The position numbers were made by a program, and so were the translations under genes. A stretch of 64,000 nt of DNA, from assembly GCF_058153355.1 (NCBI RefSeq), contig NZ_CM177019.1, one strand, 5' to 3'. Shown in pieces: positions 3,389 to 8,312 of this stretch. Position 1 is the first letter of the stretch; each line of letters opens with the position of its first letter. The notes under the pieces are model-generated. The model had not been told where the DNA came from. It made no database searches and saw only the letters and a program-made list of their open reading frames with translations.

Positions 3389-4513
3389 TTACGCCATTGT
3401 CCCAATCGTCTTCCTGAATCGCAGCAGCGCGATGGTGAAAAACACGCCGCCAATTGCCATCAACGTCAGGAACTGCGGCCAGACGATTTCGAATCCGGCA
3501 CCCCGGTAGAGGATGGCCTGCGCGAGGCTGACAAAGTGTGTCGTCGGCATGGTCAGCATAATGTCCTGCACCATCTGCGGCATACTTTCGCGCGGCGTGG
3601 AGCCACCGGAAAGCATTTGCAGCGGCAGCAGCACCAGAATCACCAGCAGCCCCAGTTGCGGCATTGAACGCGCTATCGTCCCCATAAAAATGCCGATTGA
3701 CGTGGTGGCAAACAGACTGAGCGCCACGCCCAACATAAACAACGGGATCGAGCCTTCAATCGGTACGCCCAGCACGCCTTTTACCATCAGCACCAGCGAT
3801 AATCCCGATACCACCAGCACCACCAGCCCCATCGACCAGATCTTCGCCATCATGATCTCAAACGGCGTTATCGGCATCACCAGTAAGTGTTCCACCGTGC
3901 CGTGTTCACGCTCGCGGATCAGCGCCGATCCGGTCAACACAATCGCCAGCATGGTAATGTTGTTGATGATCGCCATCACCCCGCCAAACCATGCGGGATC
4001 GAGGTTCGGGTTAAAGCGCATGCGGGTTTCCAGCGATACCAACGGTTCGCTGTTATCACGGTAGCGAGCGACAAAGCTGTTCACTTCACCGTTGATAATA
4101 TTCTGGATATAACCGTTGCCAGTGAATGCCTGGCTCATGCGCGTGGCATCGACGTTCACCTGAATATCCGGCTGACGTCCTGCGAGGACATCACGCTGAA
4201 AATTAGGCGGAATATTTATCGCGAAGGTATAGCGCCCGGCGTCCAGCCCGGCATCCATCTCATCGGCGGTGATCATCTCCGGGGGCAAAAACCACGGGCG
4301 GTAGAAGCTGTTAACGATCCGGTTCGATAACTGCGATTGATCCATATCAGCAATGGCGATCGGCGCGAGGTTCAACGATCCTGGCGTAACGGTCGCTGAC
4401 GAATACACCGACACCGTAAACGAGAAGACAATCAGCGTCAGCATCGCTTTATCACCGAGCAGACTGCGCAACTCTTTGATACCCAGATTAAAAATATTGC
4501 GTAAATGGCGCAT
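3389..4513 (-). CDS. yhhJ: ABC-2 family transporter permease YhhJ
   Basis: Multi-pass membrane protein; start chosen at the internal MRHLRNIF methionine, which overlaps the rbbA stop (translational coupling); the ORF-track N-terminal extension is rejected. Confidence 0.85.
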   Translation of the reverse strand: MRHLRNIFNLGIKELRSLLGDKAMLTLIVFSFTVSVYSSATVTPGSLNLAPIAIADMDQSQLSNRIVNSFYRPWFLPPEMITADEMDAGLDAGRYTFAINIPPNFQRDVLAGRQPDIQVNVDATRMSQAFTGNGYIQNIINGEVNSFVARYRDNSEPLVSLETRMRFNPNLDPAWFGGVMAIINNITMLAIVLTGSALIREREHGTVEHLLVMPITPFEIMMAKIWSMGLVVLVVSGLSLVLMVKGVLGVPIEGSIPLFMLGVALSLFATTSIGIFMGTIARSMPQLGLLVILVLLPLQMLSGGSTPRESMPQMVQDIMLTMPTTHFVSLAQAILYRGAGFEIVWPQFLTLMAIGGVFFTIALLRFRKTIGTMA

Positions 4514-7248
4514 CATCCCTCCTGTTTTTTCAGCAGCAGGATGCTTAAGCCCATCACCAGCGGGATGGCTATCAGCAACGGGATAAAAAGTTGCCATAAA
4601 TCCGTCAGATCCAGCGCCTTCGAGAACGTCCCGCGGGCGATAGTCAGAAAATGACTGGTCGGGTAAACCTCGCCGATCCAACGTCCTGGACCTTCCAGCG
4701 AAGCTACCGGATCGATCATCCCGGAAAACTGCGTCGCCGGAATCAACGTGATAATCGCCGTACCGAAAATGGCGGCAATCTGGCTTTTCATAAAAGTAGA
4801 GATCAGCAGCCCCATTCCGGTGGCGATGATGATATACAGCAGCGCCGCCAGGGTGAGCGTCAGGAAACTGCCTTTATGCGGTACGCCAAACACAAACACC
4901 GACAGGCCGCAGAGCAGGAAAAAGTTCAGCATCCCCAGCGCAATGTACGGCAGCTGTTTGCCAAGTAAAAATTCGCTGCGGGTGGTGGGGGTTACGTAAA
5001 GGTTGATAATCGACCCCAACTCTTTTTCCCGCACTACGCTAAGGGCGCTTAACATCGACGGAATCATCATCAGCAACAGCGGGATCACCGCCGGAACAAT
5101 CGCTGGCAGGCTTTTTACGTCCGGGTTATAGCGATAGCGTGTCTCAATATTCATCAGCCCGCTTTGGCTCGCGGGCGTGGATTGCCGACTCGCCACATCC
5201 TGTAGCCAGCTCTGGTGCATGGCCTGCACGTAACCTTTTACCGTTTCGGCACGACTGGGCATCGCACCGTCGATCCAGACACCGAGTTCCACAGGCGTAC
5301 CACGCGCGATATCGCGCCCGAAATTGGGTGGAATCTCAATCGCCACCGTGATATCGCCCGCACGCATCCGGCGATCAAGCTCGTCATAACTGGTGAGCGG
5401 CGGCTGCTCGATAAAGTAACGGGAACCGGAGAGATTGAGCGTCCACGCCTGGCTACTAACGGTCTGGTCGCGGTCGAGCACCGCAAAGCGCAGATTTTCC
5501 ACATCCATACTGATGCCATAACCCATTATCAGCATCAGGATCACCGTTCCCATCAGCGCCAGCGTCGAACGTACCGGATCGCGGCGCAGTTCCAGTGCTT
5601 CGCGACGGCTGTAGCTAAACAGACGTCGCAGGCTAAATCCCTGACGCGGCGCGTGGGTGGTATCATGTACCACAGGCGGCGCTTCGGCTTCGTTGCTCTG
5701 CCCTGCCGCTTCCTGCAAATAGGCGATAAATGCCTCTTCCAGACTGGCGGCTCCGCGTTTCTCAACCAGTTCCTGCGGTGTACCGCTGGCGAGCACTTTT
5801 CCGGCGTGCATTAGTGAGATGCGGTCGCACCGTTCCGCTTCGTTCATAAAGTGGGTGGAGATGAAAATGGTCACTTTGTCCTGGCGCGAAAGATCGACCA
5901 TTAACTGCCAGAACATATCCCTCGCCACTGGATCGACGCCAGAAGTAGGCTCATCGAGGATTAACATCTCCGGCCGATGAATCACCGCCACCGCCAGCGA
6001 AAGCCGCTGGCGAATGCCGAGCGGCAATGACTCCGGCAGAACATCTTCAACGTCGTTGAGCTTAAAACGCTCGCTCATTTCAGCCACTCGCGCGGGAATT
6101 TCCGCTTCCGGAATGTGAAACAAACGGGCATGTAACTCCAGGTTTTGCCGCACGGTGAGTTCGTTATAGAGCGAAAACGCCTGCGACATATAGCCCACCC
6201 GACGGCGAGTATCGATATCTTTTGGATCAACCGGTTGCCCGAACAGCCACGCCTCACCTTCGCTGGCGGGTAGCAGTCCGGTAAGCATTTTCATGGTGGT
6301 GGATTTACCGCAGCCGTTCGAACCAAGGAAGCCAAAAATCTCCCCGCGTGGAATGCGGAAATTGACGTGATCAACGGCAACGAAGGAACCAAAACGCATG
6401 GTCAGATCGCGCGCTTCGATGGCAATCTCTGCGTTTTCAGGTTGATACGGTGGGATCACTACCGCCTGATGCGCCTGCCGTTGTGCTTGCGGTAACAGAT
6501 TAATAAATGCTTCTTCCAGCGTGGCGCTTTGCGTTTGCTGCCGCAGCTCTTCGGCGCTGCCAGTCGCCAGTACTTCTCCGGCATTCATCGCTACCAGCCA
6601 GTCGAAGCGTTCCGCCTCTTCCATATAGGCGGTGGCAACCAGCACGCTCATATTGCTCTGCCGCTGGCGAATACTGTCGATCAGATCCCAGAACTGGGCG
6701 CGAGAGAGCGGGTCAACCCCCGTTGTTGGCTCATCAAGAATCAACAATTCCGGGTCGTGGATTAACGCACAGCACAGCCCCAGTTTTTGCTTCATCCCGC
6801 CGGAGAGTTTACCTGCCGGACGATCGCGAAACGGTGCTAACCCGGTGCTGGTCAGCAGCTCATTAATTCGGACTTCCCGCTCCGCTTTGTCGTGACCGAA
6901 CAGGCGGGCGAAAAAATCGACGTTTTCATACACCGACAAGGTGTGGTAGAGGTTTTTGCCCAGTCCCTGCGGCATCCAGGCAATGCGCGGGCAGACGTCA
7001 CGGCGATGCCTCGGGTCGCGCATATCGCCGCCCAGCACGATCACGTTGCCCTGCTCAATGACGCGGGCACCGGAAATCAGTGACAACAAACTCGACTTCC
7101 CAACGCCGTCCGGGCCAATCAGCCCGACCATGCAGCGGGCCGGAATGTCGAGAGTGATATTGTTCAGCGCAACAGTTTTTCCATAATGCTGGCTCACGCC
7201 CGCCAGTTGCGCGACAGGCGGGACGGGAACCAGTTCCAGATGCGTCAT
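4513..7248 (-). CDS. rbbA: Ribosome-associated ATPase RbbA (tandem ABC ATPase domains fused to an ABC-2 permease domain)
   Basis: 911-aa ORF with two Walker A motifs ([18 protein letters not shown]), two ABC signatures ([16 protein letters not shown]) and a hydrophobic C-terminal domain. Confidence 0.9.
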
Positions 7249-8312
7249 TGCGGCAACCTCACCACCAGGTCGTCAGGCCACGGAAGTTCTTCATTCACCC
7301 GTACCCACGCTACGCCCGGCAAACCGGTTTTGACATATTCCAGATGCTGCTGGAGTAATTCCGGTGGGATACGCGCTTTGACACGGAACATCAGTTTCAG
7401 CCGTTCATCGCTGGTTTCGACGGTTTTTGGCGTGAACTGGGCGACGCTGGCGACAAAGCTGATGGACGCAGGAATACGCAGATCTGGCGCGGCATCGAGG
7501 ATCAGTCGGGCTTCGCCGCCCAGTTTCAGCGTGCCCGCCTGTTCGGTTGGCAGGAAGAAGGTCATATAGACATCGCTGAGATCGACCATATTTAGCACCC
7601 GACCGCCTGCTGCCAGCACTTCGCCTGGCTCGGCAACCCGATACTGCACGCGTCCGTCACGCGGGGCTTTCAGTTCGCTGTCATCGATATCTGCGGCAAT
7701 GCGCCGTTCAATGGCTTGTGCCGCTTCGACGCGGGTTTGCGCCTGAATGATATTGGTGCGTGCTGCTTCTATAGCCGCTTTAGAAGCCGATACCTGAGCT
7801 TTCGCCGATTCCAGCGCGGATCGGGCGCTCTCGGCGGCGGCGCGATCGTCATCCAGCTGTTGCGCAGAAATAGCCCCCCGTTGGGCAAGCGAGCGGGAAC
7901 GCGTATGACGTTTAGCCACGGAGTCCAGTTCTGCCTGGCGTTGATTAACCAGCGACTGTGCGGCGCGAGTTTCGCTTTGTCGTTGCTCCAGCAAAGCCTG
8001 CGCGGCGGCAACGGCGCTTTGTGCTTCTTTGATTTGCGCGATGGCTTCCAGTCGCTGTTCCTGCAACACGCGAGTATCCATCTTCGCCAATACTTCACCT
8101 TCACGAACAAACTGGCCTTCTTTCACCAGAATGGTGTCGATACGCCCGGCAATTTTGCTGGCGATATCCACTTCCGTCGCTTCAATACGCCCATTGCTGA
8201 CGGCAAAGCCTTCCGGCACACCTGCCGGGCGCAACAGCCACCACGCCACGACAGCAACCACTGCCAGTAACCCGACAACCCACCACGCCAGATGGCGCTT
8301 ACTCTTATCCAT
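7245..8312 (-). CDS. yhiI: HlyD-family membrane fusion protein YhiI
   Basis: N-terminal TM segment, long Ala/Gln-rich coiled-coil region, C-terminal beta domain; stop overlaps rbbA start; start taken at MDKSKRHL. Confidence 0.85.

Follow-up and report, generated by a model that had tools for sequence, protein, structure and literature searches.

Gene content of the yhiI-rbbA-yhhJ locus

We analyzed a stretch of 64,000 nucleotides (nt) from contig NZ_CM177019.1 of the NCBI RefSeq assembly GCF_058153355.1 (hereafter the window) and concentrated on the genes yhiI, rbbA and yhhJ, which follow one another on the minus strand (Table 1). We consider it likely that this locus encodes an envelope-spanning ATP-binding cassette (ABC) export pump that is expressed as one transcription unit by way of a regulatory leader. 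The operon as such is previously known and annotated. Only the depth to which its junctions are conserved, the linkage to genes of outer-membrane factors (OMFs), an invariant degenerate ATP site and a conserved leader go beyond the annotation.

Table 1. Features of the yhiI-rbbA-yhhJ locus (positions refer to the window)
Feature	Position	Strand	Description
yhiI	7245-8312	minus	355 amino acids (aa); periplasmic adaptor (membrane fusion protein), N-terminal membrane anchor
rbbA	4513-7248	minus	911 aa; two ABC ATPase domains fused to an ABC-2 (type V) permease domain
yhhJ	3389-4513	minus	374 aa; second ABC-2 permease, partner of the RbbA membrane domain
yhiI/rbbA junction, ATGA start/stop overlap	7245-7248	minus	read directly
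rbbA/yhhJ junction AGGAGGGATGATG	4511-4523	minus	Shine-Dalgarno sequence within the last rbbA codons (K-Q-E); read directly
sigma-70 promoter-like TAGACA-16-TACTAT, TG before the -10	8646-8673	minus	consensus scan
variable 5' leader segment, from the -10 element to the conserved block	8526-8645	minus	presence/absence polymorphism
near-invariant 76-nt leader block	8455-8530	minus	helix 5' arm 8508-8519, yhiY Shine-Dalgarno sequence 8494-8500, AUGAUG 8483-8488
upstream open reading frame (uORF) yhiY	8384-8488	minus	34 codons plus TGA here; the annotated 37-codon form would end at 8375
hairpin CGCUGAACGUCGUUCGGCG (8362-8380) and 3' arm of the long-range helix (8345-8357)	8345-8380	minus	RNAalifold, pair counts

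All three genes are intact, of full length and under purifying selection, and their coordinates and names are identical in the annotations of RefSeq (best hit) and of K-12 MG1655. Substitutions relative to K-12 fall on codon position 3 of the annotated frames in 158 of 180 cases. This bias indicates that the annotated frames are the ones under selection and that the long antisense open reading frames are by-products. The region is matched in 5425 of the 5426 complete E. coli genomes with 95-99% identity. Compared with K-12 rbbA, the rbbA gene of the window shows 95.9% DNA identity and four amino-acid changes.

Gene junctions and their conservation

At the yhiI/rbbA junction the strand reads ...GCCGCAATGACGC, with the rbbA ATG at 7248-7246, the yhiI TGA at 7247-7245 and a GAGG 8 nt upstream. 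An earlier note on this DNA had placed an overlap at 7245-7248, and direct reading shows it to be exactly the 4-nt ATGA. The rbbA/yhhJ junction, CAGGAGGGATGATGCGC with the rbbA TGA at 4515-4513, offers two in-frame ATG codons for yhhJ: one at 4516-4514 (4-nt overlap) and one at 4513-4511 (1-nt overlap, TGATG). The AGGAG ends at 4519, that is 2 nt ahead of the first and 5 nt ahead of the second ATG. In Citrobacter this double start reads GTG-ATG, most of the distant orthologues have as their sole yhhJ start an ATG at or at most 3 nt after the rbbA stop, and RefSeq and K-12 annotate the second ATG. Because of this Shine-Dalgarno spacing, the Citrobacter GTG, the distant orthologues and the annotation, yhhJ most likely starts at the second ATG, in which case the two genes would share A4513 alone. 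The overlap at 4513-4516 that the earlier note had described therefore exists with either ATG, its extent being likelier 1 nt and shifted by 3 nt.

Both junctions thus have the layout of a coupled operon, with ATGA at 7245-7248, TGATG at 4511-4515 and a Shine-Dalgarno sequence inside the upstream gene each time, and we infer that translation is coupled at both. To conclude tight stoichiometric co-expression from the overlaps, as had been done before, goes too far: an overlap permits coupling and does not imply equal stoichiometry. Entries of homologous pumps in the PDB contain EmrA and MacA with six adaptor chains each. Therefore the three genes would be expected to be synthesized in unequal amounts, if the homologous assemblies are a guide.

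For the analysis of conservation we fetched 80 orthologous loci with RbbA relatives at 66-99% identity, spanning alpha-, beta-, gamma- and deltaproteobacteria as well as one metagenome-assembled genome (MAG) of Verrucomicrobiaceae and one of Phycisphaerales. An [A/G]TGA overlap is available at the adaptor/rbbA junction in 65 of 77 loci. The yhhJ start is located within -4 to +3 of the rbbA stop in 73 of 80 loci, and CAGG is found exactly 9 nt ahead of that stop in 75 of 80. The C-terminus of RbbA always lies one residue past a conserved K-Q-(E/A/D/G), and the codons AAR-CAG-GAG (4517-4528) also serve as the yhhJ Shine-Dalgarno sequence. Judging from this pattern, the ribosome-binding site of yhhJ is written into the conserved C-terminal codons of rbbA, and the C-terminus and the ribosome-binding site appear to be jointly constrained.

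As a local baseline we took 45.8 kb around the locus. Of the 23 co-directional junctions in it, 15 are overlapping, eight of them by 4 nt and three by 1 nt, and these include every junction from nikA to nikE next door. Overlapping junctions are ordinary for operons, and those studied here are ancient; what goes beyond chance is their retention across the orthologues. The baseline genes of 1-3380 and of the region to its left show equally dense 4-nt and 1-nt overlaps. They comprise the nik operon and, upstream, an aryl-polyene-type lipid cluster containing the ApeI and ApeP dehydratases, a LolA-family protein and an MMPL transporter.

Domain architecture and ATP sites of RbbA

In RbbA, Pfam recognizes two ABC_tran domains followed by ABC2_membrane_3; matches to ABC2_membrane_3 and ABC2_membrane are located at residues 569-903 of RbbA and 25-364 of YhhJ. 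The NCBIfam equivalog NF033858 (ABC2_perm_RbbA) covers residues 12-910 of 911 with 1596.6 bits at a cut-off of 1050. The nucleotide-binding domains (NBDs) have their nearest relatives in the DrrA and NodI families of exporters (TIGR01188 drrA, 391.9 bits, cut-off 312). RbbA thus combines an ABC-2 membrane domain with a DrrA/ABCA-type NBD on its N-terminal side, which is the arrangement of type V (ABC-2) exporters. Its top sequence matches in the PDB are the lipid exporters ABCA3, ABCA4 and ABCA1, and its relatives by sequence include ABCG as well as ABCA proteins. Across phyla the membrane domain is conserved to about 70%. YhhJ belongs to ABC2_membrane_3 according to Pfam, can be aligned to RbbA 539-906 and shares 28% identity with RbbA 589-911; its nearest PDB sequence is an insect ABCH protein.

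An AlphaFold2 (AF2) model of RbbA (predicted local distance difference test score, pLDDT, 83) consists of two NBDs, a short coil of about 15 residues and six membrane helices, the first and second of which are separated by a periplasmic insert. In a Foldseek search with this model the top match over NBD plus membrane domain was the ceramide-binding half-transporter ABCH-9C.

In ABC proteins both NBDs contribute to each ATP site, one with its Walker and H-loop motifs and the other with its signature. NBD1 of RbbA has Walker A, the Walker B glutamate and a canonical LSGGM signature, and Tyr208 replaces the H-loop histidine. NBD2 has Walker A, the Walker B glutamate and His466, together with a degenerate signature, LPLGI (LPLGx among the orthologues). 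Therefore one degenerate site, formed by the NBD1 motifs and the NBD2 signature, and one consensus site are predicted. This asymmetry is invariant in 80 of 80 orthologues and recurs in the K-12 paralogue YbhF. Read from these motifs, it would fit a heterodimeric membrane part made of RbbA and YhhJ.

RbbA as a possible ribosome-associated ATPase

RefSeq and K-12 both list RbbA under the product name ribosome-associated ATPase, a name that stems from the biochemistry of a ribosome-dependent ATPase. Taken literally, RbbA would primarily be a translation factor, a ribosome-bound E-site ATPase releasing deacylated tRNA, and its transporter-like neighbors would be secondary or unrelated. Besides the product names, this is supported by a 2025 study in which truncated RbbA changed peptide yields 0.6- to 2.1-fold in a reconstituted system (PMC12096078) and by binding of RbbA to the E-site (PMC12096078, citing Xu 2006). 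In addition, the tandem NBDs superpose on those of EttA with an E of about 1e-21. However, they superpose better on DppD/OppD, which are tandem-NBD subunits of importers, so that the EttA fit looks generic. The protein used in vitro had its membrane domain removed, the full-length form being unstable (PMC12096078).

Several properties of RbbA argue against a primary role in translation. The protein has a conserved six-helix ABC-2 membrane domain and is localized in the membrane: in live cells a C-terminal RbbA-mCherry fusion was distributed over the membrane (PMC6788730). The NBDs of RbbA most resemble the ATPases of DrrA, NodI and ABCA exporters. The linker of ABC-F proteins is absent, as Pfam gave no ABC_tran_Xtn match at the default threshold, nor on residues 225-310 when E values of up to 10 were allowed; in the model only the coil of about 15 residues separates the NBDs, and six transmembrane helices are predicted. 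Furthermore, rbbA is always linked to adaptor and permease genes and often to an OMF gene, and the 2011 paper that connected RbbA in vivo with ribosomes, YhjD and respiration has been retracted, in 2025 and because of concerns about images. We regard it as improbable that RbbA is in the first place a translation factor, and favor its role as the engine of an exporter. The isolated ATPase domains may nevertheless have a ribosome-related side activity in vitro.

The YhiI adaptor and its probable link to an outer-membrane channel

YhiI matches HlyD_3, HlyD_D23 and Biotin_lipoyl_2 in Pfam and reaches 113.9 bits against TIGR01730 (cut-off 94.9). The AF2 model, built from 32 sequences (pLDDT 89), shows a transmembrane helix at residues 3-26, a lipoyl domain, a beta-barrel at 238-338 and an alpha-hairpin of two helices of about 62 residues (81-144 and 150-211). 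The membrane anchor, the lipoyl and beta-barrel domains and the helical hairpin of the adaptor family are thus all present. The top Foldseek match of the model is EmrA in EmrAB-TolC (E 7e-22), followed by MacA in MacAB-TolC; the EmrA and MacA matches have E 1e-18 or better. The earlier note had described two ABC cassettes plus permease, an HlyD-type adaptor and a second permease. This architecture is borne out by Pfam and NCBIfam, by paralogy and by Foldseek, and its efflux-like reading is well supported by the domains, the paralogy to ybhGFSR, the folds matched by YhiI, the OMF genes of other loci, the degenerate ATP site and the missing ABC-F linker.

In 22 of 79 orthologous loci a gene of the OEP family is located directly upstream of the adaptor gene on the same strand. 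It codes for an OMF, a lipoprotein of about 490 aa with two OEP repeats (e.g. L012:1429-2919, L013:1117-2604). This corresponds to the classic four-gene layout of tripartite pumps and appears to us the strongest comparative argument for a machine that spans the envelope. No linked OMF gene was found at the locus studied here or at the other enterobacterial loci, and 57 of the 79 loci are without one. Because E. coli has no linked channel gene, its partner would be TolC, as proposed for YbhFSR (PMC7190983).

The same 57 loci could also be accounted for by a machine of the inner membrane that faces the periplasm without spanning the envelope, namely an extractor or flippase for lipids or other envelope components, with YhiI as a periplasmic sheath. 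The closest solved folds do move lipids (ceramide for ABCH-9C, phospholipids for ABCA1, ABCA3, ABCA4 and ABCA7). That relatives from alpha-, beta-, gamma- and deltaproteobacteria, Verrucomicrobia and Phycisphaerales are still 66-72% identical points to one specific conserved substrate rather than to drugs. This arrangement is at odds with the co-oriented OMF gene directly upstream in 22 loci, with the long alpha-hairpin of YhiI, which is typical of adaptors that dock to a channel, and with the best structural matches of YhiI, which are TolC-bound adaptors. We give such an inner-membrane machine only a small chance compared with the envelope-spanning pump. Going by the structural neighbors, a lipid-like or amphipathic substrate would be our guess.

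Transcription and the conserved leader

The promoter-like sequence upstream of yhiI (Table 1) has hexamers identical to those listed as the constitutive RpoD (sigma-70) promoter of yhiI-rbbA-yhhJ (PMC3946193), and E. coli L002, E. albertii and Citrobacter each have a homologous -35 region. The claim that the three genes form a single operon agrees with this published promoter, since co-transcription would start upstream of yhiI. Internal promoters or terminators that would split the operon were rejected: between 2900 and 9000 we found 2 promoter-like and 8 terminator-like sites, with 4.5 and 7.1 expected from shuffled sequences, which is not above chance. Of the unit 3389-8312 proposed before, the three genes stand, while its beginning has to be moved, because a leader of about 360 nt (8313-8673) precedes position 8312.

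About 330 nt separate the promoter from yhiI and include the small annotated gene yhiY (b4790 in K-12), the start of which has been mapped by ribosome profiling (bioRxiv 10.1101/511675). Next to the promoter lies a segment of about 120 nt (query 8526-8650) that 4282 of the 5426 complete E. coli genomes carry once. L002, E. albertii, Citrobacter and Pseudocitrobacter lack it, and in these the promoter abuts the conserved block. We considered this 125-nt segment as a repeat element and rejected this on account of its single copy per genome. Of 5426 E. coli genomes, 5411 hold the adjoining 76-nt block once, and in 5374 of these its identity is at least 99%. The block is more conserved than the coding genes, and its core is invariant in Citrobacter, Pseudocitrobacter and Kluyvera.

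Leaders were compared between Escherichia, Citrobacter, Pseudocitrobacter, Kluyvera and 120 metagenome contigs, altogether 91 leaders, 39 of them distinct. The uORF always starts at the same AUGAUG, and the peptide is not conserved between the genera. Conservation is confined to the first four codons (MMTT); in the three genera with long leaders, nearly every leader shares seven (MMTTLLP). The uORF has 37 aa in Escherichia and 45-46 aa in Citrobacter and Pseudocitrobacter, and is reduced to MMTT-stop in the Kluyvera type; in Citrobacter it reads the conserved 3' block in a different frame. With frame and length varying between genera, we rejected a conserved functional small protein YhiY as the main explanation. 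The position of the stop codon is kept: in three genera it lies 61-65 nt ahead of the yhiI ATG, in or beside the hairpin at 8362-8380. In the window yhiY differs from K-12 at three positions, all non-synonymous. One of them creates a TGA at codon 35 (8386-8384) and shortens the peptide from 37 to 34 aa, the sole such variant among the 91 leaders.

RNAalifold predicts a long-range helix between 8508-8519 and 8345-8357 that is kept in 15 of 15 representative leaders, and the Kluyvera-type leader keeps it despite a different sequence of the 3' arm. In eight sequences, which are few and related and belong to those from which the structure was derived, 97% of the cells pair, compared to 34-46% for slid partners, and seven pairs are changed on both sides, compared to 3.4 in shuffles. 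Two pairs of the hairpin at 8362-8380 are changed on both sides. Folding of the single leader sequence was not significant (z = -0.76); only the comparative evidence counts. Searching the locus with Rfam 15 returned no family and only a chance-level snoRNA match inside rbbA (E 0.38, 17 bits, gathering threshold 40). The interior of yhiY is rich in C and poor in G. In a 3'-end mapping study the rhoR66S mutation raised the expression of a yhiI fusion more than 2-fold, and yhiY-yhiI appears there among the uORFs with a nearby 3' end.

Tentatively, and with considerably less confidence than for the pump itself, we propose that the leader (~8345-8530) is an undescribed structured cis-regulatory RNA, an attenuator that depends on the uORF and on Rho. 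The invariant 5' block would pair over a distance of about 150 nt with the segment just upstream of the yhiI ribosome-binding site region and thereby enclose yhiY. What would matter is that a ribosome starts at the AUGAUG and stops beside the hairpin, not the YhiY peptide, and the ribosome traffic on yhiY would decide whether Rho terminates transcription before the pump genes. If this is true, the pump is tied to the translation state of the cell, which could explain why RbbA recurs in ribosome-related work.

Some further candidates were set aside. A GTG at 8348 as yhiI start is not favored, as all nine enterobacterial sequences can be aligned at the ATG at 8312 and the bases upstream of it are conserved non-coding leader. 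A candidate riboswitch near the operon (PMC4448311) is a ranked prediction only, and its listed window is 6.6 kb away from the operon. In a FlhDC genomic SELEX (gSELEX) screen and a microcin C genome-wide association study (GWAS) the locus occurs only as an entry in tables or lists, without functional follow-up.

Flanking region

The genes nikR (plus strand, ending at 3380) and yhhJ (ending at 3389) are convergent (3378-3391), with only 8 nt between their stop codons and no terminator in the gap. At this point K-12 carries a 6.7-kb insertion comprising rhsB-yhhH-yrhC-yhhI, and because of this insertion the query matches most genomes in two places.

The region 3000-8800 is unusually far from sequenced E. 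coli. The best complete genome reaches 98.4-98.5% identity over 5.8 kb, and the identity to K-12 is 95.9-97.5% per gene. The sequence may stem from a rare lineage or from an organism closely related to E. coli.

A model of the probable export pump

The model builds on gene order, overlaps, domains, paralogy, conservation and OMF linkage as they were observed. The operon would be transcribed as one unit from the promoter at ~8673-8646 through the leader, with expression being gated upstream by translation of yhiY and Rho-dependent termination. The ATGA and TGATG junctions would let ribosomes that end one gene start the next. RbbA would provide both ATPase domains and one ABC-2 membrane domain, and YhhJ the second membrane domain. 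The result would be a type V transporter in the form of a pseudo-heterodimer, in which one ATP site is degenerate and the other catalytic. YhiI would be anchored in the inner membrane by a single helix and would act as the periplasmic adaptor, its long alpha-hairpin docking to an outer-membrane channel. This channel would be TolC in E. coli and a dedicated OMF in the many other bacteria that encode one directly upstream, and transport would be directed outwards.

A number of points weigh against this model. No substrate or phenotype has been established for the pump, and overexpression of yhiHJ had only a small effect on anthocyanin export. When its membrane domain is removed, RbbA stimulates in vitro translation, and it has been called an E-site ATPase (PMC12096078). 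In the PDB copy searched, neither RbbA nor YbhF nor any close relative is represented by a solved structure. The coupling of the three genes is deduced from the sequence of the junctions and the partnership with TolC from analogy.

The operon is textbook annotation, and the finding itself adds little. Its value lies in tidying a confused record: the protein still goes by the name ribosome-associated ATPase, yet it shows all the comparative hallmarks of an engine that drives an envelope-spanning ABC exporter, and a retraction has removed one of the main in vivo papers behind its supposed role at the ribosome. With 66-72% identity over several phyla the pump is unusually conserved and therefore a reasonable target for a substrate hunt, and the search for the condition that induces it can take the conserved uORF leader as a concrete starting point.

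Comparison with known systems

Among the closest known systems is the K-12 operon ybhG-ybhF-ybhS-ybhR (ybhGFSR), a collinear paralogue that codes for an adaptor, a tandem-NBD ATPase and two ABC-2 permeases and whose junctions also overlap. YhiI shares 30% identity with YbhG, NBD1 and NBD2 of RbbA 40-41% with those of YbhF, the RbbA membrane domain 32% with YbhS, and YhhJ 24% with YbhR. YbhF has a degenerate site like that of RbbA, with a tyrosine in the H-loop of NBD1 and an LPLGx signature in NBD2. YbhFSR has been reported as an exporter of drugs or ions that is thought to use TolC (PMC7190983). Unlike in ybhGFSR, the ATPase is fused to the first permease in RbbA, which corresponds to YbhF and YbhS in one chain, and the linker between the NBDs has about 15-30 residues versus about 100 in YbhF. 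Furthermore, yhiI-rbbA-yhhJ has no adjacent TetR regulator such as the cecR of cecR-ybhGFSR; instead it has the uORF-containing leader.

With MacAB-TolC and EmrAB-TolC the locus shares a membrane-anchored adaptor with lipoyl domain, beta-barrel and long alpha-hairpin, the best structural matches of YhiI being EmrA (8ZAL, 8ZAR) and MacA (5NIK, 9QGY). The inner-membrane engine is different: an ABC-2/type V heterodimer with fused tandem NBDs takes the place of a MacB-type ABC transporter or a transporter of the major facilitator superfamily (MFS), and YhiI would assemble with TolC by analogy to these pumps. Like the ABC-F factors EttA, Uup, YbiT and YheS, RbbA has two ABC domains in one chain, and in its truncated form it alters in vitro translation much like ABC-F proteins. 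It differs from them in that it has a membrane domain, lacks the inter-domain linker and groups with exporter ATPases by sequence.

The leader can be compared with uORF- and Rho-controlled leaders such as that of mdtU-mdtJI, where, as with yhiY, a small translated uORF lies ahead of a transporter operon; the same study reported both the sensitivity of a reporter to Rho and a 3' end near the uORF, and the uORF of the present leader holds a C-rich, G-poor stretch. Unlike in the mdtU-mdtJI type, only the first codons and the position of the stop are conserved in yhiY and not the C-terminus, and the uORF is enclosed by the predicted long-range helix.

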